Assembly (NCBI GenBank): GCA_041658985.1
Contig: JBAZZC010000002.1
Coordinates: 17,120 to 81,119, forward strand
Origin: Minisyncoccota bacterium
GTDB lineage: Bacteria; Patescibacteriota; Minisyncoccia; Phycocordibacterales; DATDWN01
Reading direction: 5' to 3'
DNA length: 64,000 nucleotides
Shown: positions 1 through 55,196 of the stretch, piece by piece
Position numbering within the stretch: the first letter of the stretch is position 1
How the letters are laid out: the number at the start of each line of letters is the position of its first letter
Position numbers and translations under genes: made by a program
The notes under the pieces: model-generated
The model's input: only the letters and a program-made list of their open reading frames with translations
What the model was told of the DNA's origin: nothing
Database searches by the model: none

Positions 1-1473
1 AGAGAATACGCTCAACAAAGAGGATATGATGTCGTAAAGGTTTTCAGGGATAGTTGCACGGGTGGAGGAGATTTTATGAATAGACCAGCAATGTCAGCCC
101 TTTTAGCCTTTCTGGATAAGGACCCAGTAAATAGTTACTTCGTGGTTTTTGATGATTTGAAAAGATTTGCTCGTGATACTGTATTTCATATCAAGCTAAG
201 ACGAGAGCTTGACGCTAGAGGAGCAACAGTAGGATGTCCGAACTTTACCTTTGAAGAAACACCAGAGGGTCAATTTATTGAAACAATAATTGCTGCTCAA
301 GGAGAGCTAGACAGAAAACAAAACCAAAGACAAGTGATACAGAAAATGAAGGCTAGGTTTGAGAAAGGATATTGGACTGTTGTTGCTCCATTAGGATACA
401 AGATGATGCAGGACCAAGTTCATGGAAAGATACTCAAAAAAGTAGAGCCTCAAGCAAGTATCATCAAAGAAGCTCTCGAAGGATTTGCTTCTGGTAGATT
501 TGAAAATCAGATTGATGTGCAGAATTTTCTACAACTAAATAAATTCAGAGGAGTAAAACCTGTTGCACTTGATTCAGTAAAAAAACTTTTGACTCGGTCA
601 GTCTATGCAGGATATGTTGAGTATGAAAAATGGAATGTGAGTAGACGAGTAGGACACCATGAACCAATTATCAGCTCTGTAATATTCCAAGAAATTCAAG
701 ATAAGCTAAATGGAAAAGTAAAAATCCTAACAAGAAAAGACAACACTAAGGAGTTTCCATTACGAGGATTTGTTCTTTGTCATGGTTGTAATAAAACAAT
801 GACAGCAAGTTGGACCACTGGCAGAAATGCAAAACACCCATATTATCATTGCAAGACAAAGGGTTGTTTTATGAAGGGAAAAAGCGTAAAAAGAAAGGTC
901 CTAGAGGACGAATTTGAGGCTATATTACGCTCTATAAAGCCCAAGGAGAAGACTTTAGCTTTAACAAAGGAAATACTACTAGATGTGTGGAATAAGAGAA
1001 TTGCTAATGTAGATATTATTCATAGAGAGCATGAAAACTCACTAGATGAGATTAGAGGAAAGATAAGAATGTTCTTAGATAGAATTGGAAAAACAGAAAA
1101 CGAAATGACAATCAAGACTTACGAAAAGGAAATGGAGAAGTTAACGCAAGAGGAGCAAACATTAGAGAATCAAATCAAAGTCATGAAAGGTAGTAGACCA
1201 GATTTTGGAACCGCTCTAGATATTACTTTTGATTTTCTGAAAAACCCTTATGTATACTGGAAGAAAGACGATTTAAAAGCAAAACACCTAGTATTGAAAC
1301 TGGTGTTTAGCGACCGATTAACATATGAACGAGGTCTAGGATTTCGAACCGCTAATTTATCCCTACCATTAAGGGTATTTGAGCTAAATCAACTAGACAA
1401 CTCTTCTTATGTGGACCCTAAGAGATTCGAACTCTTGACCTCCTCATTGCAAATGAGGCGCTCTACCAACTAA
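1..1473 (+). CDS. Large serine recombinase, 5'-truncated by the window edge. Resolvase-type catalytic domain, recombinase domain, Cys zinc-ribbon, coiled coil. Its 3' end overlaps tRNA-Ala.
   Basis: The reading frame is open from nt 1 (REYAQQRGYDVVKVFRDSCTGGGDFMNRPAMSALLAFL...). The DDLKRFARD and GATVGCPNFTFEE motifs are typical of the serine recombinase catalytic domain. There is a CHGC...YYHCKTKGC zinc ribbon. Confidence 0.7.
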   Translation, partial: REYAQQRGYDVVKVFRDSCTGGGDFMNRPAMSALLAFLDKDPVNSYFVVFDDLKRFARDTVFHIKLRRELDARGATVGCPNFTFEETPEGQFIETIIAAQGELDRKQNQRQVIQKMKARFEKGYWTVVAPLGYKMMQDQVHGKILKKVEPQASIIKEALEGFASGRFENQIDVQNFLQLNKFRGVKPVALDSVKKLLTRSVYAGYVEYEKWNVSRRVGHHEPIISSVIFQEIQDKLNGKVKILTRKDNTKEFPLRGFVLCHGCNKTMTASWTTGRNAKHPYYHCKTKGCFMKGKSVKRKVLEDEFEAILRSIKPKEKTLALTKEILLDVWNKRIANVDIIHREHENSLDEIRGKIRMFLDRIGKTENEMTIKTYEKEMEKLTQEEQTLENQIKVMKGSRPDFGTALDITFDFLKNPYVYWKKDDLKAKHLVLKLVFSDRLTYERGLGFRTANLSLPLRVFELNQLDNSSYVDPKRFELLTSSLQMRRSTN

Positions 1474-1484
1474 GCTAAGGGCCC
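1412..1484 (-). tRNA. tRNA-Ala (anticodon TGC), 73 nt, with the G3:U70 identity pair. The CCA end is not encoded.
   Basis: Reverse complement: GGGCCCTTAGCTTAGTTGGTAGAGCGCCTCATTTGCAATGAGGAGGTCAAGAGTTCGAATCTCTTAGGGTCCA. It folds as a cloverleaf. Anticodon loop is TT-TGC-AA. T-loop is TTCGAAT. Confidence 0.85.
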
Positions 1485-1718
1485 AATATTATTTAAAAAT
1501 TCTCTACCTTTTCCTGATTTCAAAAATCTTTCCCTTTTTATTGCCTCCACCTTTAAAGCATACGACTCAGTATAGATTAACTTATAAGGACCATTTTGAC
1601 TAGTGAATTTATTGGAACCATTATTGTGTTCAGTCAACCTTTCTACAGCGGTTTTTCCTGTATAGCCAATGTATCCTTTTTTATTTCTTAGACTTCTTAA
1701 TACATACACAACAAACAT
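1470..1718 (-). CDS. GIY-YIG nuclease family small protein; the 3' end of the ORF overlaps the tRNA 5' end by about 12 nt.
   Basis: YVLRS..KGYIGYTGKTAVERLTEHN matches the GIY-YIG motif. Size is about 82 aa. Confidence 0.6.
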   Translation of the reverse strand: MFVVYVLRSLRNKKGYIGYTGKTAVERLTEHNNGSNKFTSQNGPYKLIYTESYALKVEAIKRERFLKSGKGREFLNNIGPLA

Positions 1719-3408: not shown

Positions 3409-3648
3409 ATGGGCCTGACTTTTTCGGGTAATTGGAACAATCACGTTTTGGCGATGGAAGAGTGTTGTGCTGGTCGTGGGAGAATGGAGATCACTCTCTC
3501 CGACGACCAGGAGCGAAAGCTCCAAAACGGCGGACTTGTCTCCCTGAAGGAGCGAGTCTCGCCGAGTCTCGCAGAGTGTCTCTCCGTCCGTCCCCATTGG
3601 CTCTCCGCGCCAGCGGCGCTCGTGGTTGATGCGACGAAGTCGCGCTGA
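3409..3648 (+). CDS. GC-rich small protein, cassette copy 1 (about 80 aa); paralog of 3861..4034.
   Basis: GGAGGG SD 5 nt before the ATG. About 60% GC in a 33% GC context. Followed by its own terminator. The MEITLSDDQERKLQNGGLVSLKERVSPSLAECL segment aligns with MEIDIPTKEYRRLLDGGLDRLKRKCSPNLASRLL of the paralog. Confidence 0.45.
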   Translation: MGLTFSGNWNNHVLAMEECCAGRGRMEITLSDDQERKLQNGGLVSLKERVSPSLAECLSVRPHWLSAPAALVVDATKSR

Positions 3649-4075: not shown

Positions 4076-4125
4076 TTGAAGATAAAATTAAGGATGTTAT
4101 AATTATTGTATTATTAATTAGCTTC

Positions 4126-4237
4126 ATCCAGGCACTAACTTAGTGAGATGATAACATTTCTGCTAATCATGATTGTACATCGATGAACACGTGTTAACTT
4201 TTTATATAAGTTGTACTCATTAAGTTAGTGCCTGGAT
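4126..4237 (+). repeat. Family A palindromic leader element, divergent copy A1. Terminal inverted repeats atccaggcactaacttagtgag / ctcattaagttagtgcctggat. It ends 9 nt before the ATG at 4247.
   Basis: 21-nt inverted arms with 1 mismatch. Confidence 0.6.
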
Positions 4238-4246
4238 AAATTTATT

Positions 4247-4618
4247 ATGGACATTACACTTTTAGTTGCGAAAATATTAGGTATCTATTTGGTGGTCAGT
4301 GGTTTGTTTCTCATGATAAAAGGGAAAACTATTCCACATCTACTTAGAGATTTTTTTGACCACCCAGCGGTAGTTTATTTGACAGGTATAATTTTAATTT
4401 TCCTGTCTTCTATGTATCTTATTCAATATAATATCTGGGATGGAACATGGCGAGCTCTGGTAACCCTATTTGCCTGGATTGTTATGTTAAAAGGTCTGGC
4501 TTACATTTTTATTCCACAGGCTTTAGGTGAAGCCTCCGTTAAGAAGTTTAAAGGATTGTTTGGTGTTTATGGTTTAATTGCTATAGTGATTGGTGTTTAT
4601 CTGTTTTTTTTAGGCTAA
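4247..4618 (+). CDS. Small integral membrane protein (123 aa, 4 TM).
   Basis: Hydrophobic ORF immediately after the A1 element. Confidence 0.5.
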   Translation: MDITLLVAKILGIYLVVSGLFLMIKGKTIPHLLRDFFDHPAVVYLTGIILIFLSSMYLIQYNIWDGTWRALVTLFAWIVMLKGLAYIFIPQALGEASVKKFKGLFGVYGLIAIVIGVYLFFLG

Positions 4619-4747
4619 ACGAGAAAATGTCAAAATAAAGCCAAAACAGTGTGGGGTTGTGACCTTGCATTGTTTTGTGTCTTAATGGTGTGGATAGTTT
4701 ACGGGTAATTACAAATGTTATATAATACATATATTAATATTAAATTA

Positions 4748-4884
4748 ATCCGCACACTAACATTGGTATTGTGTCTTCCGTTGCTACTGTAAGTTATCAA
4801 AGCAGAGTGATGGAAGATAAGGTAGTATAGATACTAAATCTAAACCAGACACAATTGCAACGATACCAATGTTAGTGTGCGGAT
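4748..4884 (+). repeat. Family A element A2: terminal inverted repeats ATCCGCACACTAACATTGGTAT / ATACCAATGTTAGTGTGCGGAT, with internal paired boxes tgtgtct/agacaca and cgttgc/gcaacg.
   Basis: 22-bp perfect terminal inverted repeats. It ends 10 nt before the ATG at 4895. Confidence 0.7.
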
Positions 4885-4894
4885 AAATAAAAAT

Positions 4895-5080
4895 ATGGAA
4901 ATGAAAGCTTTGTGTATGAGATGTAGAGATGCTAAAAACAAACCTACAATGCAGATTATGAATAGTCCTAAGGTTTCAGAGAAAAAGAATAGATATTCTG
5001 CAAAAGGTCAGTGTGCAAAGTGTGGTGGAAATATGTTTAAATTTTTATCAAAAGCAGATGCAGATAATTTGAAAAAATAG
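4895..5080 (+). CDS. Small zinc-ribbon protein, 61 aa (CxxC...CxxC).
   Basis: MEMKALCMRCRD...CAKCGG. The ORF track began it at the GTG at 4877, which lies inside the A2 arm, so the ATG at 4895 is preferred. Confidence 0.45.
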   Translation: MEMKALCMRCRDAKNKPTMQIMNSPKVSEKKNRYSAKGQCAKCGGNMFKFLSKADADNLKK

Positions 5081-5173
5081 AGACCGCTTTGTTTCTTGTG
5101 AGTAAAAAATGAATATGATAGAATACCTTAGACCTTAATTTTACTTGAAATAAGGAAAATTATTATTAACTTC

Positions 5174-5309
5174 ATCCGCACACTAACATTGGTATTGTGT
5201 CTCCTGTTGCTACTGTGAGTTATCAAACAGAGTAGTAGAAGATAAAAAGGTGTAGATACTAAACCTAAACCAGACACAATTGCAACGATACCAATGTTAG
5301 TGTGCGGAT
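5174..5309 (+). repeat. Family A element A3, near-identical to A2.
   Basis: Same terminal inverted repeats and internal boxes. It ends 15 nt before the ATG at 5325. Confidence 0.7.
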
Positions 5310-5324
5310 AAAAAAGATAAAGAT

Positions 5325-6029
5325 ATGGATAAGAACAAAATTATTTCTATCATAGTTGTAGTGGTTGTTGTTTTGGCTGTTGCTGGGTTTTTTATGTTTC
5401 GTGGAGACAAAATAAACAATCCAACAAGTGGTAATCCAGAAAGTGTGGCTACTGTAAACGGAGTAACCATTTCAAAAACAGTTTATGATGCACAACTTAC
5501 TTCAGCAATTTCTTCATACAAGACTCAAGGAATAGATGTAACAAAAGCAGATGAATTGGCTAAAATAAAGACTCAAGTTTTAAATAACCTCATAGACAAT
5601 GAATTAGTCAGTCAGGGTATTGTAAGCAGTGGAATTAAGGTTGATGACGCTGATATTGAAAAACAAATTCAAGATATCATAAAACAAACAGGAGGGGCAG
5701 ATAAGTTCCAAGTAGAACTTACTAAGGCCAATCTTACAGAGGCGCAACTTAGAGATAATATATCTAAGCAACTTACTCTTCAAAAATACTTAGAAGCTAA
5801 TGTAGATGTGAGCAAGATTACAGTAAGTGACACCGAAATTTCAGAGTTCTATAAACAATACAGTGACGCTCAAAAAACAGCTTCTTCTACCACAAAAGTT
5901 CCAGCACTTAAGGAATTAAGTGACCAAATAAAACAACAAATCACATCAAATAAGCAACAAGCTTTAATTAATGATTTTGTTGCTTCCTTACGAAGTAAAG
6001 CTCAAATAACAACATCTACGGCTTTATAG
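5325..6029 (+). CDS. Membrane-anchored SurA N-terminal-domain-like chaperone/PPIase-domain protein.
   Basis: N-terminal TM helix, then VATVNGVTISKTVYDAQL..., typical of the SurA_N/PpiD-like family. Confidence 0.45.
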   Translation: MDKNKIISIIVVVVVVLAVAGFFMFRGDKINNPTSGNPESVATVNGVTISKTVYDAQLTSAISSYKTQGIDVTKADELAKIKTQVLNNLIDNELVSQGIVSSGIKVDDADIEKQIQDIIKQTGGADKFQVELTKANLTEAQLRDNISKQLTLQKYLEANVDVSKITVSDTEISEFYKQYSDAQKTASSTTKVPALKELSDQIKQQITSNKQQALINDFVASLRSKAQITTSTAL

Positions 6030-12985: not shown

Positions 12986-13894
12986 ATGGAATCACAAAAT
13001 AAACCCACAGCAAAAGATTTTTTTCTAAATCTTGGAGCAATTATTGCTCTTGGTGTGTTTGTGGGAAATTTAATAAGCTTATTGTTTACAGTAATAAATA
13101 AAGCCTATCCAATAACTACAGGATATAATTATTATAGTAGTTACTCTATTAGTTTTCCGGTAGCGACTCTAATTATCGTATTTCCTTTATATATACTATT
13201 TATGTGGTTACTGGAGAGAGATTATTCTGTTTATCCTGAACAAAAACGTGGTTTTGTCAGGAGGTGGTTGACCTTCATCACTCTATTCGTGTCTGGAGGA
13301 ACACTGATTGGTGATTTGGTCACAGTTTTATATTACTTTATTGATGGTCAGGAAATGACAGCTGGTTTTATAATGAAGATTTTGTCAATTTTGGTAATTT
13401 CTTTGGCTATTTTCTTCTATTACACCTATGATTTGTTAGGAAAATCAAATAACACTTCCAGAAAAATCTGGGTTGGTGCTTCCGTACTAGTAATTTTATT
13501 GTCTATTGTGTGGGGTTTTTCAGTTTTGGGTTCTCCTAGAACACAAAGACTACTAAAGTATGATGAACAAAAAGTTAATGATTTAGCAAGTATCAGTAAT
13601 AAAATAAACACATATTATTCTCAAAAGGGAGATTTGCCAGTCGTTCTTGCTGATACGGGACTGGATTATTATGTCCCAGAGGTTGATTCCCAATCTCAGA
13701 AACCATATGAATATACTAAAACGGGAAATACAACATATAATATTTGTGCAGAGTTTAACAAGGCATCAACAGAAGGTAATCAGAGATATAAATACCCTAG
13801 TTATCTTAGTACATGGCAACATCCAGCTGGTAGATATTGTTTTAATAAGACAATAAATCCAAATCTATATTCTGAACCTATTCCTGTATACTAG
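12986..13894 (+). CDS. Membrane protein of unknown function (N-terminal 4-TM domain plus C-terminal extracytoplasmic domain).
   Basis: Hydropathy pattern only. Confidence 0.4.
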   Translation: MESQNKPTAKDFFLNLGAIIALGVFVGNLISLLFTVINKAYPITTGYNYYSSYSISFPVATLIIVFPLYILFMWLLERDYSVYPEQKRGFVRRWLTFITLFVSGGTLIGDLVTVLYYFIDGQEMTAGFIMKILSILVISLAIFFYYTYDLLGKSNNTSRKIWVGASVLVILLSIVWGFSVLGSPRTQRLLKYDEQKVNDLASISNKINTYYSQKGDLPVVLADTGLDYYVPEVDSQSQKPYEYTKTGNTTYNICAEFNKASTEGNQRYKYPSYLSTWQHPAGRYCFNKTINPNLYSEPIPVY

Positions 13895-20021: not shown

Positions 20022-20090
20022 TCATAAATCTTTTTTTTCATCACAATCTTTTCAGAGCAACCTTAAGAAATTCCAGCGAATTTCTTAAGG

Positions 20091-20173
20091 CCAGTCCTCA
20101 CCCTCTAGCTGTCAAGAGCCCTCGCTTCGCTCAGGTCTATGACAGCACCATGCTAGAGGGTTGCGGGGTCTCT
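20091..20173 (+). repeat. Conserved ~85-nt stem-loop element, copy 1: outer stem ccctctagc/gctagaggg, inner stem TGTCA/TGACA around AGAGCCCTCGCTTCGCTCAGGTCTA, then ttgcggggtctc. Preceded by a 12-bp hairpin at 20061-20090.
   Basis: Aligns along its full length with the copies at 35396 and 39691; the outer stems covary. Confidence 0.65.
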
Positions 20174-20208
20174 GAAAAAATTATGATTCAACAAGATTTA
20201 TTCTTTGT

Positions 20209-25072: not shown

Positions 25073-25327
25073 AGTACTCTCATCATTATTTTTTCAAGAC
25101 GCGTATAAATCGCTGTTGCGATTTTACTATTCTCACTAATCAAGAAAACAATCTTCCTCAGTACTGGCCCTTTCGCAAACTCCTCGTTGAGTACAACTTC
25201 GTCAAACAGTGCTTCGGGCTGGCGTACTTCGTCGTTGTTTTCTAATTAGTTGCGAAATGTCTTGAAAAAACAATGATTCGAGTAAACTAATAACAAGATT
25301 TTATTTACTGATATTTTATGTAATAAT

Positions 25328-27185: not shown

Positions 27186-28514
27186 ATGATTTCCGACTAT
27201 ATATTTTTAATATCACTTAGTATTATAGTTTTACTTGGTTTGTTTATTTTCTTCACCAGATACTTTAATTTATCTCTAAAGAACAAAATAAATTATTTTA
27301 GTGTTTTATATCATTCTATCAAGGATAAAAAGGATGTGTCCCTTTTGATTGATATTGATAATGGAAGTATAAACATTGCCATTGTTTCTTTTGTCAAAAA
27401 TCAGGTACCCGAATTTCTGTATAGTGTAAACACTTCATTTGTAAAAGGAAAATTAGATACTTCAGAATTATCCAACAAAATAAATCTATTATTAGATTCA
27501 TTATTAAAAGTTGCGATAAAAGAAGGCTCAAATAATAGTCGTTGGAAAAACAAAAATAAAAAATTTTCTCGTGTAGTAATTTCTCTTTCTTCACCCTGGC
27601 TTACATTAAAACAAAAAAATATTCATCTGTCTAAAGATATACCTTTTATTATTACGAAAAAATTTATAGACAATATTACCTCAAACGAAGAAAAATTATT
27701 CAAAAAAGAATTGTTAAAAGATTTTTCTGTAAAAGAATATGGCCAATTTGAGATTATTGAAAAGAGTATTATTCACGCCAAAATTAACGGCTACACTATT
27801 GATGATGTTATTAATAAAAAGACCAAAAATCTAGACGCTTATCTATATATGTCAGCTATTTCCCAGAAAATTGAAGAAAACATATCAGATATTGTACTAA
27901 AACATACACATATTTCGAAAGAGAATATTTTAATACATAGTTTTCCTTTAGTTCTGTTTTCAACAGTCAGGGATAATTTTATGGGAAATTCGGATTTTAT
28001 TATCATAAATATCAATTCTGAAGTCACTGACATTATTTTGGTTAATGACCATATTATTAAATCGACAACGTCTTTTCCTTTTGGTAAGAACACTATTATT
28101 CGTCAAATTGCGAAATCTTTTAAAGTCTCTATGGAGATAGCCCAGTCTGAACTTAATATGTATTTATCAAAAAAGATAGATAACAATATTTATGTATCAA
28201 TACAATCCTTAATGGAAGACTTAGAAAAAGAATGGTCAATTTATTTTGAGGATGCTTTACTCACTCTTTCCCCCAACATGATTCTTCCCAAAAAGATTTT
28301 TATGACGACGGATGCCGAAGTTTCTTCTATTTTTATGGATTTTCTAAAACCGTCAAGGTCTGATGCTACATTCGGTTTCAGAAAGAGCATTGAAGTTGTT
28401 CATGTAGATGAAACAACTCTTTCTAGTTCCTATCAAAATAATTTTAAGATACCGATTAGTGAGTCAACGATTATTTTGGCCATTTTTCATAATAAATTGA
28501 TTCAGAATCAATAA
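27186..28514 (+). CDS. Membrane-anchored protein with an actin-like ATPase fold (PilM/FtsA-like).
   Basis: N-terminal TM helix. LLIDIDNGSINIAIVSF and IININSEVTDIILVND resemble the two phosphate-binding segments of PilM/FtsA. Confidence 0.35.
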   Translation: MISDYIFLISLSIIVLLGLFIFFTRYFNLSLKNKINYFSVLYHSIKDKKDVSLLIDIDNGSINIAIVSFVKNQVPEFLYSVNTSFVKGKLDTSELSNKINLLLDSLLKVAIKEGSNNSRWKNKNKKFSRVVISLSSPWLTLKQKNIHLSKDIPFIITKKFIDNITSNEEKLFKKELLKDFSVKEYGQFEIIEKSIIHAKINGYTIDDVINKKTKNLDAYLYMSAISQKIEENISDIVLKHTHISKENILIHSFPLVLFSTVRDNFMGNSDFIIININSEVTDIILVNDHIIKSTTSFPFGKNTIIRQIAKSFKVSMEIAQSELNMYLSKKIDNNIYVSIQSLMEDLEKEWSIYFEDALLTLSPNMILPKKIFMTTDAEVSSIFMDFLKPSRSDATFGFRKSIEVVHVDETTLSSSYQNNFKIPISESTIILAIFHNKLIQNQ

Positions 28515-28535: not shown

Positions 28536-28669
28536 ATCCGCACACTAACTTTAGTATTATCTCTCCGGTTGCTTCTATGGTTGGTTAGATAAAGTAACAG
28601 TAAAAAATAAGTGTGAATAGTAAATCTGTGTTTGACATAATGCAACGATATTAAAGTTAGTGTGCGGAT
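28536..28669 (+). repeat. Family A element A4 (variant arms ATCCGCACACTAACTTTAGTAT / ATATTAAAGTTAGTGTGCGGAT).
   Basis: Terminal inverted repeats with compensating changes on both arms relative to A2/A3. Confidence 0.65.
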
Positions 28670-28711
28670 GAATTTGCATAAACAAACTCATTTACGTTAC
28701 AATAAGGAGGA

Positions 28712-28820
28712 AATGAATCCCGTACGAAGTTTATGTATTATCGTTGTAATGGGATGAATGTTTAATTATTAACTAATTTAAGTATAAGGTGTACATAACA
28801 CATTTACTTCGTACGGGATG
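28712..28820 (+). promoter_or_regulatory. Family B leader, copy B1: AAGGAGG SD, a 14-codon uORF (MNPVRSLCIIVVMG, 28713-28757), and a long hairpin whose 3' arm (acttcgtacgggAUGa) contains the start codon of the gene at 28818.
   Basis: 14-bp perfect complementarity between uORF codons 2-6 (AAUCCCGUACGAAGU) and the region including the downstream AUG. Confidence 0.55.
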
Positions 28821-30197
28821 AAAAAAAAGATTGTTCAAGATGTTATTCCTCCTAAAAAAACTATTCGCAATGTAGAATTGTTGTATAGAGCAAAACGTTC
28901 CGAGAAAATACCCAAAGAGGTAGTAAAACAAAATATTCCAGTTATACCAGAAGTTTCCGAATCAAATTCAACATCAAACACCGAAACCTTTTCCGAAACT
29001 GAAAATTTTTCTTATAAATATGAGTACGATGAACCGGTAAGACATTCAAAAAAAATCTTGTATGTTTCTGTTGTCTTGTTTGTCCTGGCCTTATCTTTTG
29101 GTATATCAGCATTATTTAAAAGTGCAGAAATACGCATTATACCCAGGAGTGAGATTAGCTCTATAGATGAGAATTTTAAAGCCCTAAAAAATCTTTCGAC
29201 AAACGGCTTAGGTTTTCAGACCGTGACAACCACAAAAGATATTGAAAAGACAGTATCGGCAACAGACGAAGAACAAGTTGAAAAGAAGGCCATTGGCAAA
29301 ATTGTTGTTTATAATAATTATAGTGTTCAACCACAGGCACTAGTAAAGACAACAAGATTTGAAACCCCAGATGGGCTTGTCTTTCGGACAGTAGAGGACA
29401 TAACTGTCCCGGGGATACAAATCAAGAGTGATAAGGCTGTTGCTGGAAGCATAGAGGTTGGAGTAGAAGCAGATAAGCCCGGACCAAAATATAATATTGG
29501 GTTGAAAGATTTTTCTATTGCCGGTTTCAAGGGTACTCCAAAATATACAAAGATTTATGGTAGGTCAAGAACAGAAATGTCTGGCGGTTTTGTGGGAACA
29601 CAAAAGACCGTAAGTAAGGAAACTATAAATAAAATTGATGAAGAAATAAAGGAACTTCTAAAAACTTCTCTTTCAAAAGATATTATTTCGCAGATACCAG
29701 AAAATTTTGTGTTATACCAAAACAGTACTTCCTTTAAATTTGAACCAATTACTCAAATCAATGTCACCACAGAGGAGAGTGGTACTACAAACACAATAAT
29801 TTTAAAGAAAAAAGGTTCTATAAGTGCCATTATCTTTGATAAAGGTTCTCTTTCTAGGGCAATAGTTAGTAAGATTTTACCTGATGTGGCAAGTGATATA
29901 ATTAAAATAACCAATCTTGAGAGTTTAAATTTTACTTTTCAATCAGAAACTCAATTTAATCCAAATACTGATACTTTTCTTAATTTTAACCTAAAAGGAG
30001 AAGCTAATTTCCAATGGGTTTTTGACGAAAATAAACTCAAATTTGAGCTCTTAGGAATGTCAAAAAATAATGCAATAACTATAATCAGTAAATACGACAC
30101 AATAAAAGAAGCAAAAATTGAAACCCATCCTTTCTGGAATAAGACCATTCCAAAAGATTCTAATAAAGTTACACTTATAAACACTCTGGCAAAATAA
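28818..30197 (+). CDS. Hypothetical secreted/membrane-anchored protein, 459 aa.
   Basis: ORF with a TM helix near residues 80-100; no recognised motif. Confidence 0.4.
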   Translation: MKKKIVQDVIPPKKTIRNVELLYRAKRSEKIPKEVVKQNIPVIPEVSESNSTSNTETFSETENFSYKYEYDEPVRHSKKILYVSVVLFVLALSFGISALFKSAEIRIIPRSEISSIDENFKALKNLSTNGLGFQTVTTTKDIEKTVSATDEEQVEKKAIGKIVVYNNYSVQPQALVKTTRFETPDGLVFRTVEDITVPGIQIKSDKAVAGSIEVGVEADKPGPKYNIGLKDFSIAGFKGTPKYTKIYGRSRTEMSGGFVGTQKTVSKETINKIDEEIKELLKTSLSKDIISQIPENFVLYQNSTSFKFEPITQINVTTEESGTTNTIILKKKGSISAIIFDKGSLSRAIVSKILPDVASDIIKITNLESLNFTFQSETQFNPNTDTFLNFNLKGEANFQWVFDENKLKFELLGMSKNNAITIISKYDTIKEAKIETHPFWNKTIPKDSNKVTLINTLAK

Positions 30198-30209: not shown

Positions 30210-30758
30210 ATGGCATATGTCTCCAGGGCGGGTGATAAGCTAGAACACATTCTAGTTTTGACTGGTTTTAATTTGGCGGTCTGTGCTGACTTTGGTTCAA
30301 GCACTGGCGGGTTTGTTGATTGTTTGCTGGAACATGGAGCCAAAAAAGTTTATGCGGTGGAAACCGGTTATGGTCTTTTGGACTGGAAATTGCGTACAAA
30401 TAAAAATGTAGTGGTTATGGAAAAAAAGAATGCTATGCACATTGTTCTTCCCGAAAAAGTGGACCTTATCACTATTGATACAAGTTGGACGAAATTGGCT
30501 AAAATTATCCCGAACGCCTTAGCTAACCTAGGAGAGAGTGGTCATATAATTGCTTTGATTAAACCACATTATGAGGCTGAAAAATATATGTTGTACCACG
30601 GAAAACTCAAGGAAGAATTTGTTTCAAACATCTTGGGTGATGTAATGGAGAAATTAAAGCAGTTTCAGTTAGAGGTCCTTTTTGAGACGGAATCGCCTAT
30701 TTTGGGAGAAAAGGGAAAAAATAGAGAATTCTTGGTTCTTATGAGAAGGCGGGGTTGA
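30210..30758 (+). CDS. tlyA: TlyA-family rRNA 2'-O-methyltransferase (FtsJ-like, no S4 domain).
   Basis: RAGDKLEHIL...ADFGSSTGGFVDCLLEHGAKKVYAVETGYGLLDWKLR. Confidence 0.75.
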   Translation: MAYVSRAGDKLEHILVLTGFNLAVCADFGSSTGGFVDCLLEHGAKKVYAVETGYGLLDWKLRTNKNVVVMEKKNAMHIVLPEKVDLITIDTSWTKLAKIIPNALANLGESGHIIALIKPHYEAEKYMLYHGKLKEEFVSNILGDVMEKLKQFQLEVLFETESPILGEKGKNREFLVLMRRRG

Positions 30759-30799
30759 CGAAATAGCCAATGTTCTGCTACTATGTAGCTCGTTGATTA

Positions 30800-30937
30800 A
30801 TCCGAACACCAACTTTAGTATTGTGTCTTCCGTTGCTTCTTTTTATAAGTAATTAGCGGATTCAGTCAAGGTATAGATTTGGTTAGTAAATCTATATTTT
30901 GGACACAGTGCAACGATACTAAAGTTGGTGTTCGGAT
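30800..30937 (+). repeat. Family A element A5 (variant arms ATCCGAACACCAACTTTAGTAT / ATACTAAAGTTGGTGTTCGGAT); ends 9 nt before the infA ATG.
   Basis: Terminal inverted repeats with double compensatory changes. Confidence 0.65.
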
Positions 30938-35200: not shown

Positions 35201-35395
35201 TATTAGATATACTCAATATATTGAACTTTTGTGTATACGCGTTAGCTTTTCGCAGTCCCGTACTGAGCTTTGCTCTAGTACTGGGACAAGCAAGGCTCCT
35301 CAGTGGTCAAAACGTTAGTTTTCTTTTTCACAAAATCTCTTTCTCGTCATATCTTTTGAGAGACCGCTCATCCGCCCCTGCCGGCGGATTTGCTT

Positions 35396-35476
35396 AATCC
35401 TCGGCCATGACTTGTCAAGAGCCTTCGCTTCACTCAGGTCTATGACAAGACCATGCTCATGGCCTGCGGAGTCTCC
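35396..35476 (+). repeat. Conserved ~85-nt stem-loop element, copy 2 (outer stem ggccatga/tcatggcc; inner stem CTTGTCA/TGACAAG).
   Basis: Aligns with the copies at 20091 and 39691. Confidence 0.65.
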
Positions 35477-35506
35477 CAAAAGATACGACTTCGACGAGAT
35501 TTTGTT

Positions 35507-43992: not shown

Positions 43993-45147
43993 ATGAATAC
44001 CAAGAGAATTTATTTTATAGTTTTAGGTGTGTTTTTGTTTGTTACTATTTTTATTTTCACAAGTCTTTATGCTTCTACCACCATTAGTACAAATATAAAT
44101 ACAGGAGGTTCGCTGACAGTTAGTAGCACAGGTATTTTTGCTGGGAATGTTGGTATTGGCACGACTACCCCTGCAACTTCACTCAGTATAGTCGCTACCC
44201 CATCAACCACTAGTTATGTAGATGGAATAGCCTCAACTTATTACCCCACAAATCTTTTAAGTATTACTGATACCGCTGTTTCTGCTGTAAATAATACTGG
44301 TATCCTTATTGACTATATAGTTAATCCTTCATCTAATCCTGGCAGTAAAACTTATAGAGGCCAGGTAATTACACTATCAACACCTTCAAGCAATGAACAG
44401 AGTGTGGCGTCTGCTTCTTTGAGAGGTATCCAATCAAATGTTAAACATCAAGGTTCTGGAAATTTATCAAGTTTAATAGGCATAACACTTAATGCAGATT
44501 TCACTGGTTCAGGCACTATTGCGAACCAATATGGTACTAGTGGAAGTATAACCGTTACTGGGAGTGGAAATGTGACAAATCTATATGGCAATGCTTTTTC
44601 AGAAACCGTTACTGGGAGTGGAAATATAAGCAATCTTAAAGGAGAATCAATCACAATAACTCATACTGGTAATGGGAATGTAACAACTCTATCAGGAACT
44701 CTTACCATAATAACTCATACTGGCTCTGGCACAATAACATCATTTGATGGAAGTAGATTAACTCTAGTTAATACTGTCGGGACAATAAACACTGCTTATG
44801 GTTTTAGATTTGAAAGTTTGACTGGTGCAGGCACAGTTGGTAACACTTATGCATTTTATGTAGGTGATATAACTGCCGGCACGCAAACCAATACCCCATA
44901 TTCCTTTTACGCCTCTGACGCTGGGGCATATAATTACTTTGCCGGCAATACTGGTATCGGGACAACTACCCCCCAGACTAAACTTCATGTTTCCTCTGGT
45001 GCAAGTGCCACAACTACAGTAACTGTAGGAGAACTTGGACTGACTACTAGTAAGGCATGTGTTAATATGAATCAAGCAGATGGCAGTGCCGGAAGTTTTT
45101 ATCTGGCAGGAGGTACTGTAAAAGTTGAAGATAATTATTGTAGATAA
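43993..45147 (+). CDS. Secreted surface protein, family member 3.
   Basis: Same termini as member 1 with a different middle segment. Confidence 0.6.
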   Translation: MNTKRIYFIVLGVFLFVTIFIFTSLYASTTISTNINTGGSLTVSSTGIFAGNVGIGTTTPATSLSIVATPSTTSYVDGIASTYYPTNLLSITDTAVSAVNNTGILIDYIVNPSSNPGSKTYRGQVITLSTPSSNEQSVASASLRGIQSNVKHQGSGNLSSLIGITLNADFTGSGTIANQYGTSGSITVTGSGNVTNLYGNAFSETVTGSGNISNLKGESITITHTGNGNVTTLSGTLTIITHTGSGTITSFDGSRLTLVNTVGTINTAYGFRFESLTGAGTVGNTYAFYVGDITAGTQTNTPYSFYASDAGAYNYFAGNTGIGTTTPQTKLHVSSGASATTTVTVGELGLTTSKACVNMNQADGSAGSFYLAGGTVKVEDNYCR

Positions 45148-45171
45148 TCGTCTTATTATTTAATCATTTAG

Positions 45172-45654
45172 ATGTCAGTAATCTTAACAAAAATTACAAG
45201 TGCACTTTCCGGTGATTTAGTCTTTCTCGTCGTTGTTTTTGCCGTCTTATTTATTTGCGCGATGTATTTTGGTAAAAATCAGATGGTTTCTATCGTTCTA
45301 TCATTCTATCCAGCAACACTTCTATACAATAGTTTCCCATTCATTAATAAATTTATTGTACTAACTGGAGAAAAGCTGGTGATTCTAAACAAAGTCGGAA
45401 TATTTCTTATTTTCTTTGTCATAGCAAACTTCGCCATAAGAAAATACATCTCTTCATATAACGAATCATCCAGTATTCTTAAAAACGGGGGATTGGCTTT
45501 TGCCGTTCTTGTTCTTCTCCTTTTATTTTCTTATAGTACTGTGAGTTTAGATATATTTCATAACTTTTCTGGCTCAATAGATGTGCTTTTTGTAAGTGCC
45601 GATAGGGTATTTTGGTGGAATCTGGCTCCTTTGGCCATTTTGATATTTATCTAA
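45172..45654 (+). CDS. Integral membrane protein, 160 aa.
   Basis: Hydropathy only. Confidence 0.4.
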   Translation: MSVILTKITSALSGDLVFLVVVFAVLFICAMYFGKNQMVSIVLSFYPATLLYNSFPFINKFIVLTGEKLVILNKVGIFLIFFVIANFAIRKYISSYNESSSILKNGGLAFAVLVLLLLFSYSTVSLDIFHNFSGSIDVLFVSADRVFWWNLAPLAILIFI

Positions 45655-45773
45655 CCCTACCATTCAAGCACGTTGATTTTTGGCAGTTTTGATGTCTACT
45701 AAAAATTAAGATTATGTGGCTTTATGGAGCCAATATTTAGGCCTTTTCATATCTCATTTTTTGTGTTATTTTG

Positions 45774-45803
45774 TTGACAGGGGGTAGGTAAGTGTGATAT
45801 ACT
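45774..45803 (+). promoter_or_regulatory. Near-consensus sigma70-type promoter: TTGACA, 18-nt spacer, TATACT.
   Basis: Read directly. About 120 nt upstream of the gene at 45927, with a small hairpin plus T-run right after the predicted TSS. Confidence 0.45.
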
Positions 45804-45926
45804 ATACATGACTCAGTAGAACTGAGTTTTTCCGTTCTAAACAGGGATGAAATGAACTAACTTCTTTCATTCCTCCAGAATTACTATTTAATTAAATAAT
45901 TTATTTTAAATTTCACAGCAGTAGGT

Positions 45927-46367
45927 TTGTTTATGGTTTTATCGTCTGTCACAGGCGTTACCAGTCCAGTTACGGTCACAGAGGCTCCAAAAGTGGAAAC
46001 TAGTGCCGTAAAGGAGATATCAAGAAAGGAAGTTGAAAACATAATGAGTACCGAACAATACATTAAACAGTATTTCTCGGATATTCCAATTATGATTCAA
46101 ATTGCCAAGTGTGAATCGAGGTTTAGACAACTCGATTCAGATGGAGATATTCATAGAGGAGTAAATAAAGCTGATGTGGGTGTAATGCAGATAAACGAGC
46201 GTTACCACCTAGACCAGTCAGTAAAGAAAGACTACAATATCTACACCATTGAGGGTAATACCGCTTATGCCCGTGACTTATATGAAAGACAGGGCACACA
46301 GCCTTGGGCGTCATCAAAGGCATGTTGGGGTAAGTATGAGAATAAGGACCTAGCAATAAACAAATAA
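45927..46367 (+). CDS. Secreted transglycosylase-like (Rpf/SLT-like lysozyme fold) protein.
   Basis: IAKCESRFRQLD...GVMQINERYH resembles the catalytic Glu region and the G.MQ motif of lytic transglycosylase-like domains. Confidence 0.4.
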   Translation: MFMVLSSVTGVTSPVTVTEAPKVETSAVKEISRKEVENIMSTEQYIKQYFSDIPIMIQIAKCESRFRQLDSDGDIHRGVNKADVGVMQINERYHLDQSVKKDYNIYTIEGNTAYARDLYERQGTQPWASSKACWGKYENKDLAINK

Positions 46368-46392
46368 TTGTAAAAACAAATTTTACACACGG

Positions 46393-46417
46393 ACCCCTGG
46401 AAACAGGGGTTTTGTGT
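46393..46417 (+). terminator. Intrinsic terminator ACCCCUG-gaaa-CAGGGGU followed by UUUGUGUUG.
   Basis: 7-bp stem plus T-run. Confidence 0.65.
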
Positions 46418-46497
46418 TGTCTAAAAATTTTTAATAGTTTTTATTTTATTGTCTATTTGTAGAGGGGAGTAGTATAAGAGCACGTCGCACAATATAT

Positions 46498-46668
46498 CTT
46501 TAGTGTGTCCTCCTTGAGGGCACACTAAAGATGAATACATTTTACAAACACGGCGCAAAGCTTGTGTCGTAAAATGTATTCTCCCCCATCTACCATTAAA
46601 AAGATTCAACCTGACGCATTATAGGAGGTCGATTCTCGCCTCTTCGGCGAGTCCGTCGTTGAGACGGA
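46498..46668. other. Cluster of four consecutive strong hairpins (10-bp, 13-bp, 5-bp, 6-bp stems) in a convergent intergenic region; candidate structured ncRNA or stacked terminators.
   Basis: CTTTAGTGTG...CACACTAAAG; GAATACATTTTAC...GTAAAATGTATTC; TCGCC-tcttc-GGCGA; TCCGTC-gttga-GACGGA. Confidence 0.3.
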
Positions 46669-46765
46669 TTTAGTATCCAAAAAAATAATTTTACTAGGGG
46701 ATTGGTTATAATCAAAAAACATCCTAAAAATAGGATAACTCCCCTACTCGCACATCATTGTCTTA

Positions 46766-46987
46766 TTAGAAGGTTGGAGCTTTATTAACTATCAAATTTC
46801 TTATTACATCATCCAGCCAATTGTAAAGAATTTTGAAAAATGTTATTGCTGGTTGAATTATTTCTTGGGCCTTAGGTGACCTTAGCCATTCCAATAGGTC
46901 AAAATGCAAAAAATATTTTAAAGCTATTACCGCAATTATTAATAAAATTATTCTTCCTATAAAACCTTTATTGTTAGTTAAATTCAT
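46766..46987 (-). CDS. Small membrane protein, 73 aa.
   Basis: Single TM helix. Confidence 0.4.
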   Translation of the reverse strand: MNLTNNKGFIGRIILLIIAVIALKYFLHFDLLEWLRSPKAQEIIQPAITFFKILYNWLDDVIRNLIVNKAPTF

Positions 46988-47004
46988 ATGGCTATATTAT
47001 AAAG

Positions 47005-53254: not shown

Positions 53255-55077
53255 AAAGAGAGCATCAATAATAAGTAGATTTTTCTTGAATTATCAGCGG
53301 ATTTTAATAGGTGGTCATCTATTAATTTTTTTATAAATTCAACATTCATGTGGCTTTTTATGTAGTCGTTATTTATGATTGTCTCATAGACATCAGTCCT
53401 ACTTTCATTAAACCAACTCTTAATAGGAATTGGAAAACCGAGCTTTTTTCTGTTTCTGGTGGTTTCTGGCACTATTTTTTGAAAAGCCTCTCGAAGCAGG
53501 TATTTAGTTATGCCCCCACGCCATTTAAAACTGTCTGGAAGGGTTTTAGCCAGGTTTGCCACCTCTAAGTCAAGAAAAGGTACCCGAAGCTCTAAAGAAT
53601 TAGCCATAGTCATTTTATCAGCTTTTGCTAGTATATCCCCTACTAACCAGGTATTTATATCTATATATTGCATCTTGGTTGAGTCACTTAAACTAGAGAC
53701 TTTTTTATACAAAGAATCTAAAGAAATTTCTTTCATTTTGTTTCCAACCCAAAGCTTTTCTAAATCCTTATTCTTGAAGACGGAGGCGTTGCCTATGTAC
53801 CAGTTCTCCAGCTTATAATATACTCTACGAATATAATTTTTACCCCAAAATTCAAAAGGTATTTTCAATATTACACCGAGGCCCTGCCTCGGTAACCATG
53901 AGATTTTTTGGGAAGCAAAAGGTGCGAGGTAAATATTGTATCCACCAAAAAGCTCATCCGCTCCTTCGCCCGACAATACTACTGTAACGTGTTTTCTAGC
54001 TTCGCGGGCAATAAAATATAATCCAATAGCCGAAGGGTCAGCAACCGGCTCATCAAAATGGTAAACCGCTTTAGGTAAAATGTTGAAATATTCATCCTCA
54101 TTAATTTTTATTTCAACATGGTTTGTACCAAGATAATCAGATGTTTCACTTGCTTCCTTTCCTTCAGTTAGGGTATCAAAACCAACTGTAAAAGTTCTTA
54201 TCTTCTTATCCCCTCTAATTTCCTGCATTAAAGTTGTAATAATTGAACTATCTATTCCTCCAGAAAGAAAGGTTCCAACAGGAACATCGGCTATCATATG
54301 ATGTGCTACGGAATCCTTAATGGTTTCATAAATTATTTTAGCTGTTTTATGTTCATCAAGACGGTTGTCTTGATGAAATTCAAAAGACCAATACTTTTCT
54401 ATGTGTGTTTCGTTGGTGATAAGGTCAATTAACAGGTAGTGGGCTGGAGGAAGTTTGTAGACATTCTTAAAAAATGTTTCGTTTAGAGGATTGTATTGAA
54501 ACGAAAGATAGTTTATAACAGCGTTGTCATTAATGTCTATTTTAAATGAGGGGAGAGCCAAAAAGCTTTTTATCTCCGATGAAAAAGCAATAACCCTACC
54601 ATCATCATTAACTAGATAGTATATTGGTTTTATACCAAAAAAATCTCTGGCAATAAATAGTTTTTTTGTTTCGGTATTATATATGGAAAAAGCGAACATA
54701 CCCCGCAATTTTGTAAGCATTTTTTCTCCATAAAATTCATACATATGCAGGATAACTTCAGTGTCTGATTCGGTCTTAAAAACACAACCATTTTTAATTA
54801 ATTCCCCTCTCAGTTCTTTGTAGTTGTATATTTCACCATTAAGAATAATTAATAGTTTTCCATCGGCCGAGGAGATTGGTTGCCTTCCTGTGGATAAGTC
54901 TATGATGGACAATCTTCTCATACCCAACCCCACATATTTATCAATATAAAAACCATCATCATCTGGACCACGATGAACTATCTTTGCCACCATATCTAAA
55001 ATTGGCTTTTCTTTTTCGGTTGTTTTTGGGTCAAAAAACCCAGCTATTCCACACATAGGAACAGTATACCCCGACAC
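53215..55077 (-). CDS. asnB: Asparagine synthetase B (glutamine-hydrolysing).
   Basis: MCGIAGFFD (N-terminal nucleophile Cys), SGGIDSS PP-loop; likely start at the ATG at 55056. Confidence 0.85.
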   Translation of the reverse strand: MSGYTVPMCGIAGFFDPKTTEKEKPILDMVAKIVHRGPDDDGFYIDKYVGLGMRRLSIIDLSTGRQPISSADGKLLIILNGEIYNYKELRGELIKNGCVFKTESDTEVILHMYEFYGEKMLTKLRGMFAFSIYNTETKKLFIARDFFGIKPIYYLVNDDGRVIAFSSEIKSFLALPSFKIDINDNAVINYLSFQYNPLNETFFKNVYKLPPAHYLLIDLITNETHIEKYWSFEFHQDNRLDEHKTAKIIYETIKDSVAHHMIADVPVGTFLSGGIDSSIITTLMQEIRGDKKIRTFTVGFDTLTEGKEASETSDYLGTNHVEIKINEDEYFNILPKAVYHFDEPVADPSAIGLYFIAREARKHVTVVLSGEGADELFGGYNIYLAPFASQKISWLPRQGLGVILKIPFEFWGKNYIRRVYYKLENWYIGNASVFKNKDLEKLWVGNKMKEISLDSLYKKVSSLSDSTKMQYIDINTWLVGDILAKADKMTMANSLELRVPFLDLEVANLAKTLPDSFKWRGGITKYLLREAFQKIVPETTRNRKKLGFPIPIKSWFNESRTDVYETIINNDYIKSHMNVEFIKKLIDDHLLKSADNSRKIYLLLMLSLWYNVFVKSINSK

Positions 55078-55196
55078 TAAGTTAATTCAAAATATTCAGA
55101 GATTTGGTTGATATTTTGATATTTCTACACAATAAACACCCGAGATATCTTAGTGTGGGGGTATATCTGAATACCTAAGACTTGTCTAAAAAAGCC

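Follow-up and report, generated by a model that had tools for sequence, protein, structure and literature searches.

What are the palindromic elements of about 135 nt that end a few bases before the start codons of unrelated genes in a Minisyncoccota genome? We analysed a stretch of 64,000 nucleotides (contig JBAZZC010000002.1 of assembly GCA_041658985.1, positions 17,120 to 81,119 of the forward strand), called the window below, and we call these elements family A. A preliminary description, made from the letters of the window alone, had proposed a dedicated cis-regulatory 5' leader that controls translation initiation in a genome with weak or no Shine-Dalgarno (SD) sequences, with a miniature inverted-repeat transposable element (MITE) of strong site preference as the alternative. 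Our analysis suggests that the alternative fits better, though without the target-site duplications of a MITE. Family A probably consists of the MITE-like copies, lacking an open reading frame (ORF), of a family of palindromic selfish elements in Paceibacteria-type bacteria of the candidate phyla radiation (CPR). The family as observed is dispersed and polymorphic, has an ORF-carrying form, occupies transcribed non-coding gaps and keeps a compensated hairpin structure. A dedicated role in translation control is not needed to explain the data and is not supported, as it conflicts with copies at rRNA sites, filled and empty orthologous sites, truncated copies, both orientations and an enclosed nuclease gene.

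Where the copies sit

The window contains four near-canonical copies (A2 to A5) and one divergent copy (A1), all on the + strand, and a sixth member (A6), which was found by a generic arm search.

4126..4237, + strand: A1, divergent 112-nt member with arms ATCCAGGCACTAACTTAGTGAG / CTCATTAAGTTAGTGCCTGGAT; ATG 4247 follows after 9 nt
4748..4884, + strand: A2, canonical ORF-less 137-nt element; ATG 4895 follows after 10 nt (zinc-ribbon DUF5679 peptide)
Parts of A2: left arm L 4748-4769; box X 4770-4776; box Y 4779-4784; box X' 4847-4853; box Y' 4857-4862; right arm L' 4863-4884
5174..5309, + strand: A3, canonical 136-nt element; ATG 5325 follows after 15 nt (SurA_N-like protein)
28536..28669, + strand: A4, 134-nt element directly 3' of the stop codon of ORF 27186-28514
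30800..30937, + strand: A5, 138-nt element; ATG 30947 of infA follows after 9 nt
55068..55162, - strand: A6, 95-nt variant of the ACCC...GGGT type with arms ACCCCCACACTAAG.../...CTTAGTGTCGGGGT; ATG 55056 (-) of glmS follows after 11 nt

Searching the window with the arm ATCCGCACACTAACATTGGTAT at up to 3 mismatches gave 6 matches, which form three facing pairs, and 0 in 100 shuffles; A5 and the divergent A1, beyond the reach of that search, were picked up by an inverted-repeat scan. The two scans agree with the coordinates and arms first given for A1 to A5, and the sequence bears out start-codon gaps of 9, 10, 15, 43 (to a short ORF) and 9 nt. The grouping of all five into one family stands for A2 to A5 (mutual identity 73-75%, with A2 and A3 91% identical). 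It is looser for A1, which is only 55-62% identical to the other window copies, lacks the X and Y boxes and is missed by the family profile. Mirrored arm changes had been described for both A4 and A5. They are present in A5, whose changed arm ATCCGAACACCAAC is mirrored and compensated on the other side (ATCCGAACACCAAC.../...GTTGGTGTTCGGAT), but not in A4, which keeps ATCCGCACACTAAC with one G.T.

On its 3' side A4 is followed by a palindrome of a second family (family B) and then by ORF 28818-30197. The glmS gene of the window was tried as an empty site and rejected, as the older ACCC-type copy A6 is present there; the end of A6 with its flank reads GGTATACT, with a -10-like box 6 nt 5' of the glmS ATG. 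Two other glmS loci (L056 and L017; L numbers denote collected loci) have a second, tandem copy of the element.

Long hairpins are predicted for all of A1 to A5, with energies of -41 to -64 kcal/mol and z scores of -5.7 to -11, and the opposite strand folds somewhat more weakly. The family profile scores A2 to A5 at 72-84 bits on the + strand and 42-50 bits on the - strand, that is in a single orientation. At the gathering score Rfam matched only tRNA in the whole window and nothing in family A; at E values up to 10 it gave only sub-threshold microRNA/snoRNA hairpin matches for 4100-5340.

Outside the window, an arm-pattern scan found 12 stretches in genomes of GTDB species (Paceibacterota, Zambryskibacteria, Patescibacteria) and 65 metagenome stretches, with 0 matches in viral contigs. 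Pairing the arms gave 76 distinct elements, long (129-147 nt) or short (54-76 nt), and there are further forms, namely a ~31-nt mini-palindrome and several solo arms. None of the 76 lies inside an ORF of at least 150 codons, and 49 of them end at most 30 nt, mostly 2-15 nt, from an ATG-started ORF of at least 70 aa; several additional elements precede shorter ORFs. The gene-oriented flanks are strongly polar, with T at -3 in 44/49 and AAA at +1 to +3 in 40/49. A -10-like hexamer ends exactly 2 nt 5' of the element in 19/46 cases (10 TG-extended). As first described, the downstream genes are unrelated; they include infA, glmS, xseA, the genes of the SurA-like protein and the zinc-ribbon peptide, rRNA and many others.

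One identical element-bearing stretch occurs both under a Paceibacterota metagenome-assembled genome (L009) and under one labelled 'archaeon' (L014), and another copy lies in a bin labelled Saccharibacteria (L008). Either repeats or contigs were mis-binned here, or the family crosses lineages.

Copies associated with rRNA are located upstream of 16S, just before 23S and between 23S and 5S. In a single copy (L046 729-866), the element replaces the apical loop of a hairpin in the 3' domain of 23S rRNA, 140 nt for 2, at position ~2845 of the RF02541 model. The same rRNA operon tail (L046 550-1442, equal to the L079 region) carries, besides this long element, a ~31-nt mini-palindrome of outer arm bases ending at 983 and a 69-nt short form at 1078-1146 before 5S. 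The motif GGAAAGTTCGTTGACA is found 3-5 nt before the element at L009 ~3425-3444, L031 ~13354-13373 and L070 ~790-810 (-); two of these three loci are upstream of 16S rRNA, and the motif may be the -35 region of an rRNA promoter.

The rRNA copies bear on a rival explanation, that family A is a host-domesticated module for RNA processing or stability, i.e. a hairpin which is removed by RNase III or protects the 5' end and which was spread by ordinary recombination. Short ORF-less rRNA insertions in CPR bacteria have been interpreted as intervening sequences of the RNase III kind (PMC11270868). The 23S copy at a helix tip resembles such intervening sequences, other copies are in rRNA spacers, where processing stems lie, and a perfect stem of ~22 bp is kept in all size classes. 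A -10 box at -2 would also put the RNA 5' end inside the left arm and give a 5'-terminal hairpin. However, most family A copies are in mRNA leaders, the L046 site is not a classical site of intervening sequences, and in a mini version the stems measure only 9-14 bp. Tandem arrays, ORF-carrying copies and presence at some orthologous sites but not at others speak for a self-propagating element. We regard this explanation as doubtful on its own; it is compatible with a selfish family as a secondary effect.

Signs of movement and the nuclease-carrying form

Filled and empty orthologous sites were found for several ORF-less copies (L035/L034, L011/L067, L053/L021, L004/L072 and L030/L021). In L053/L021 the filled site reads GATAA-element-AAAACATG and the empty one GATAAATAACATG, with equal flank length, and in L004/L072 the distance from the -10 box to the ATG is 36 nt vs 36 nt, which indicates that the insertions left no target duplication. 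Looking for duplications of 2-3 bp in the flanks and in the filled/empty pairs detected none: T-W-N borders one end of the element and AAA the other, and these are not direct repeats. An apparent AT 'duplication' was ruled out by the ACCC...GGGT variants.

Tandem copies occur in L035, L060, L042 and L083, with only AA between the copies in L035 and L060, and L083 has four elements within 1.8 kb. Truncated forms (solo arms, half elements) occur as well. At two orthologous sites the subfamilies differ (L004_7784 vs L023; L035_5288 vs L073_5042), which points to long retention, hot spots or replacement via the shared arms. The idea that a -10 box travels with the ORF-less copies is contradicted by the common flanks of the filled and empty sites in L053/L021 and L035/L034; for the ORF-carrying copy at L092 it may still hold.

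The longer form was found at L064, where family A arms enclose an 88-aa GIY-YIG ORF. A protein search gave 327 homologues at E values up to 1e-10, named GIY-YIG nuclease family protein and coming from Paceibacterota. The gene is arm-enclosed in 7/7 tested homologue loci of at least 65% identity (L064, L080, L083, L089, L090, L092 and L094). On the left the layout is T-W-N, then the element start ATCCGCACACTAAC..CATTT, 4 nt and the ATG of the nuclease ORF; on the right it is ...AAATGAGAGTTAGTGTGCGGAT, then AAA, 0-5 nt and the ATG of a host gene that differs between loci. In L089 the contig ends within the right arm, so that the right flank lies beyond it. The six complete copies are exactly 302 bp each, and the stop codon of the nuclease lies within the right arm. 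Their arms are 22 bp long, with the outer 14 nt identical to those of the ORF-less arms (ATCCGCACACTAAC). Among these loci the arm changes are compensated and the nuclease gene has many synonymous differences. Both forms can occupy one genome: a single 173-kb contig holds the ORF-carrying L083 and the ORF-less L015, L025, L055 and L078.

The 88-aa protein matches the Pfam GIY-YIG model PF01541 (4e-15, 56 bits, cutoff 22.6), its nearest solved proteins are UPF0213, and a group I intron endonuclease model gives 22.5 bits at a cutoff of 56. As judged from these matches, the protein is a bare catalytic domain that stands alone. In L092/L093 the ORF-carrying element is located between DUF3298 and xseA. 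The syntenic sites of L096 (92% xseA identity) and L099/L100 (82%) are empty, and the two genes overlap there as ATGA, which means that the ORF-carrying form entered a site without a prior hairpin element.

A homologue of 61% identity (L086) is not enclosed by family A arms. At L086 1501-1820 a different hairpin, which has ACCC...GGGT ends and then AAA (ACCCTCCCACCA...TGGTGGGAGGGTaaa), comes after this homologue and the arm-like GTTAGTGGGGGAG comes before it, and the homologue may belong to a sister element family. We also tried to read the ORF-less interiors as deletion products of the nuclease gene, with mean z values of 0.3-1.8, which is unconvincing.

To our knowledge, GIY-YIG nucleases are familiar as homing endonucleases but not as enzymes of dispersed transposons in prokaryotes. 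It is possible, and we put it forward tentatively, that the 88-aa nuclease is the mobilising enzyme of an unrecognised class of prokaryotic mobile elements which copies itself without detectable target duplication into junctions between promoter and start codon. These junctions are alike in a near-leaderless, SD-less genome (TATAAT-N2 before the element, AAA-N-ATG after it) and could provide microhomology for break-induced copying; the element would capture the host promoter for its own expression, and through its X and Y boxes either strand of the DNA would fold into an equivalent bulged hairpin on which a structure-specific nuclease could act.

The family could instead be a classical MITE of a DDE transposase (IS630/Tc1-like or IS5-like) with its partner elsewhere, the GIY-YIG gene being an invading homing-endonuclease gene. 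The terminal inverted repeats, the small size and the many copies with size variants agree with this, as do the other GIY-YIG genes in these genomes without flanking arms and the lack of demonstrable interior homology between the two forms. It is quite unlikely in the face of the missing target-site duplication, the absence of any longer armed element around a transposase in 0.56 Mb of loci, the constant length of 302 bp at 7 loci, where the ORF fits exactly into the space that the arms leave, and the colonisation of a virgin operon junction that had no hairpin element. Repeats of the REP/REPIN type, moved by a RAYT (Y1 HUH) transposase via single-stranded DNA, would also be hairpin-forming and leave no target duplication, and polar flanks with subfamily-specific orientation are what strand-specific single-strand transposition would give. 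By inspection, though, the arms are not self-complementary REP palindromes, the copies are located 5' of genes and not 3', and no RAYT gene was seen, with no systematic search made for one; we consider this origin highly unlikely.

The window itself has a GIY-YIG gene of another kind. An 82-aa ORF at 1470-1718 (-), 41% identical to the arm-enclosed one, is located directly 5' of tRNA-Ala (1411-1484, -), and its stop codon is inside the tRNA-Ala copy. The first 17 nt of this tRNA (GGGCCCTTAGCTTAGTT) are duplicated upstream of the ORF, in a repeat at ~1765-1781, and a large serine recombinase gene (76-1473) adjoins. This looks like a nuclease gene inserted in a tRNA gene with partial duplication.

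Arms, crossing boxes and orientation

In 55 trimmed sequences L:L' is 97.1% paired, 10 of the 22 pairs are changed on both sides, and 0/500 shuffles reach the observed covariation score. The variable arm positions partly mirror the degenerate positions of the search pattern, a bias that does not affect the compensation.

The two inner box pairs that had been described, TGTGTCT/AGACACA and CGTTGC/GCAACG, are present in crossing order, e.g. in A2. X adjoins the left arm and pairs with X', and Y' lies between X' and the right arm and pairs with Y. The X:X' types include TGTGTCT:AGACACA, GTCTC:GAGAC, GTGTTTT:AAAACAC, TGTGCAT:ATGCACA, TGTTCTG:CAGAACA and TATCC:GGATA; those of Y:Y' include GTTGC:GCAAC, GTTAC:GTAAC, GTTCTGA:TCAGAAC and GCTTTTT:AAAAAGC. 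Because MAFFT lost the X and Y registers across subfamilies, the formal pair count was made on the arms only and the boxes were tested by a register-aware permutation. Over 46 representative types, the helices within an element's own sequence average 6.3 bp for X and 6.2 bp for Y, compared with 4.35 and 5.17 bp for permuted partners, and 0/2000 permutations match the observed value for each box. Covariation, which had been suggested as a check, is thus found for both crossing pairs.

The preliminary description had left a choice between a pseudoknot and alternative pairing. Forcing X or Y to pair gives mean energies of -46.5 vs -45.9 kcal/mol, with a minimum free energy of -49.6, and in this folding model X:X' and Y:Y' behave as two nearly iso-energetic, nested alternative extensions of the terminal stem. 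With linkers of 2-3 nt, and with the 22-bp stem directly adjoining both boxes, we judge a full H-type pseudoknot to be sterically doubtful. By symmetry, either DNA strand can form an equivalent bulged hairpin. The arm mismatches show no G-U bias on the sense strand (13 G.U vs 12 A.C) so that nothing in them singles out the sense RNA as the target of selection.

The orientation of the elements is fixed locally, as had been noted for the window, and is not fixed for the family as a whole. Relative to the gene, 19 interiors point as in the window and 14 the other way round, and a further 16 could not be assigned. Within some subfamilies it is uniform. The GTTAC subfamily is always oriented as in the window and has an internal TGnTATAAT box at ~nt 55-63 that is aimed at the gene; a transcript from this box would be without L, X and Y. 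Half elements beginning at this internal box persist upstream of one orthologous gene, and the GTTAC-type subfamily, to judge from its boxes, probably acts as a portable promoter. Members of the GTGTTTT subfamily point the other way in every case, with TGnTATAATTA abutting the element and AA-ATG following it. The GTCTC subfamily has mixed orientation.

These data also bear on the dedicated cis-regulatory leader RNA, whose alternative or pseudoknotted pairings would control translation initiation in a genome without SD sequences. A position 2-15 nt from the ATG in an SD-less host, arms that are nearly fully paired with many doubly changed pairs, crossing boxes that covary and are nearly iso-energetic as a switch would be, uniform orientation in the window and within subfamilies, and retention at orthologous genes are all expected of such a leader. 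On the other hand, the downstream genes are unrelated, copies are found before and inside rRNA and around a nuclease gene, and the element is missing from orthologues without visible replacement. The interior is reversed in 14 of the 33 assignable cases, truncated half copies persist upstream of one gene, the internal GTTAC promoter omits L, X and Y from the transcript, the arms do not prefer G-U over A-C, and no Rfam family matches. We therefore judge a dedicated leader to be unlikely.

Several observations weigh against a selfish family mobilised by its nuclease and should be set beside those in its favour. Homology between the interiors of the ORF-carrying and ORF-less forms could not be demonstrated beyond the arms, so that the nuclease gene could be a secondary guest in a hairpin loop, and the link between nuclease and mobility, as read from the sequences, is one of association only. 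No arm-enclosed GIY-YIG copy was seen within the 64-kb window. The junction of L092 is not clean, with further differences over ~10 nt to its left and ~19 nt to its right. Among the filled/empty pairs, which have 75-92% protein identity and diverged junctions, we saw none that was both recent and clean, and elements are kept at orthologous sites at only 65-71% identity of the flanking proteins (glmS in L017/L056, L048/L049 and L016/L071). The loci were collected with the arm pattern, which biases the conservation of the arm sequence by ascertainment. Finally, both crossing pairings are preserved even in subfamilies of fixed orientation. This speaks for selection on structure, something that a purely parasitic model has no need of, and pure parasitism leaves the retained double pairing unexplained.

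Host signals, related systems and other repeats

The SD core is found at -20 to -5 in 5/57 window genes, which equals the random rate of 9% and agrees with the weak or absent SD first supposed. A -10-like box ending 4-10 nt before the ATG is found in 10/57 genes vs 5.8% of random positions, about threefold enriched. TGnTATAAT stands 6-7 nt before the ATG in many window genes, e.g. 17764, 21334, 42145 and 55056(-). These counts indicate that SD pairing is unused in the host genome and that initiation is largely SD-independent, with many genes near-leaderless. Loss of the anti-SD motif has been reported for part of Parcubacteria (PMC9297842), with which our result agrees.

Four promoter-like sites, each a consensus match only, precede the window copies.

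4076..4103, + strand: promoter-like site TTGAAG-16-TATAAT, TG-extended, 22 nt upstream of A1
4698..4726, + strand: promoter-like site TTTACG-17-TATAAT, 21 nt upstream of A2
5096..5124, + strand: promoter-like site TTGTGA-17-TAGAAT, TG-extended, 49 nt upstream of A3
30755..30784, + strand: promoter-like site TTGACG-18-TACTAT, TG-extended, 15 nt upstream of A5

With these sites 15-49 nt upstream of A1, A2, A3 and A5, the element would make up most of each 5' untranslated region (UTR), in line with the leader position that had been proposed. The cumulative GC skew peaks at ~44000-47000, with genes on the + strand up to ~46.4 kb and on the - strand from ~47 kb, which looks like a replication terminus-like switch. 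A1 to A5 are on the + strand in the + half and A6 is on the - strand in the - half.

Both forms share one niche, the short stretch that separates a start codon from the -10 box, short 5' UTR or operon junction before it; rRNA spacers and helix tips are used more rarely. We propose the following course for a selfish family of this kind. New sites would receive copies by a break-and-copy or structure-specific route that makes no detectable target duplication. On this route the GIY-YIG nuclease would act on the hairpin or cruciform arms and serve the ORF-less copies in trans, and the look-alike promoter and start flanks may serve as microhomology. Only co-transcribed insertions that leave the A-rich start region unpaired would survive, and survival would be easy because the host is SD-independent with many near-leaderless genes. 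The sharp -2 spacing would arise if T-W-N^AAA must fit a near-leaderless gap of 6-7 nt, the last T of the -10 box then being the T at -3.

In the RNA, a hairpin of 22-30 bp at or near the 5' end would likely be an RNase III substrate or a 5' stabiliser. In the window, five unrelated genes (six with A6) would have the whole element in their transcript, where it would account for most of the 5' UTR, and effects on the expression of the downstream gene would be a by-product and not a dedicated control circuit. The 5'-terminal stabilisers of the ompA and aprE type consist of a stable hairpin at the mRNA 5' end with a short single-stranded start region after it. Family A would similarly give a stable hairpin near the 5' end before a short start region; by analogy the comparison is limited in that those stabilisers are features of single genes and family A is a dispersed repeat.

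Among known repeats, the Correia elements (CREE/nemis) of Neisseria are non-coding, 100-155 bp long, with ~26-bp terminal inverted repeats and many gene-adjacent, co-transcribed copies; RNase III can bind or cut their RNA hairpins, and they can create promoters (PMC2649163). Family A is like them in its 22-bp arms, size range, leader position and promoter boxes at the end or inside. It differs in having no sequence similarity to them, in leaving no duplication where Correia elements duplicate a TA target, and in its covarying crossing boxes, its GIY-YIG ORF form and a -10 spacing defined to the single nucleotide. The terminal sequence of Correia elements presumably differs from the arms ATCCGCACACTAAC... 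as well.

Family A shares with MITEs that it is short, non-coding and multi-copy, with terminal inverted repeats and with insertion polymorphism, the latter among diverged genomes only. Like pairs of a MITE and an autonomous insertion sequence (IS), it has short ORF-less copies and, on the same contigs, a longer copy with the same ends that codes for a candidate enzyme. Unlike these, it encodes an 88-aa GIY-YIG domain and no DDE, DEDD, HUH, serine or tyrosine transposase, it makes no target duplication, and the interiors of its two forms are not demonstrably homologous. The GIY-YIG homing genes (I-TevI, Seg proteins) have the same catalytic domain and are likewise small selfish genes wedged between host genes, with host expression signals, insertion polymorphism and no target duplication. 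However, homing enzymes have a DNA-binding domain and move to allelic sites, whereas here we see the catalytic domain only, 22-bp inverted repeats, many non-allelic loci and abundant ORF-less hairpins. In its workings family A is most like Correia elements and MITE/IS pairs, apart from the absent target duplication. A literature search on palindromic repeats in CPR bacteria, on MITEs of Parcubacteria and on GIY-YIG elements with inverted repeats in bacteria, incomplete in coverage and thus no proof of novelty, found no description of such a family.

Genomes of CPR bacteria (Patescibacteria) are small and tightly packed, and dispersed repeats are unexpected in them. Family A shows a habitat that selfish elements can use there, i.e. 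the few bases from a -10 box to a start codon and the tips of rRNA helices. If the link to the GIY-YIG nuclease is causal, this nuclease family would be new to dispersed prokaryotic transposition and would offer a very small testable system of 302 bp and an 88-aa enzyme. The family is also a natural experiment on SD-free initiation, with dozens of genes tolerating a 22-30 bp hairpin 2-15 nt before the AUG. In annotation there is a risk that such repeats are taken for structured regulatory RNAs, and the arms break or confuse metagenome assemblies and bins.

Other palindromes are found in the window. Family B (arms ATCCCGTACGAAGTTTATGTAT...) occurs at 28717-28819 and from ~31176, after the infA stop codon, and its termini are ATCC...GGAT as in family A. 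The left flank at 28700 is AAGGAGGAAATGA, and the terminal GGGAT of the element plus G makes the ATG of ORF 28818-30197, so that family B was inserted exactly at a start codon. Further long inverted repeats of other sequence families (e.g. TACTCTCATCATTATTTTTTCAAGAC / GTCTTGAAAAAACAATGATTCGAGTA) are located at 20033-20194, upstream of the gene at 20233, at 25075-25284, upstream of 25328 (alaS), and at 35330-35505. Several palindrome families seem to reside in the leaders of this genome.

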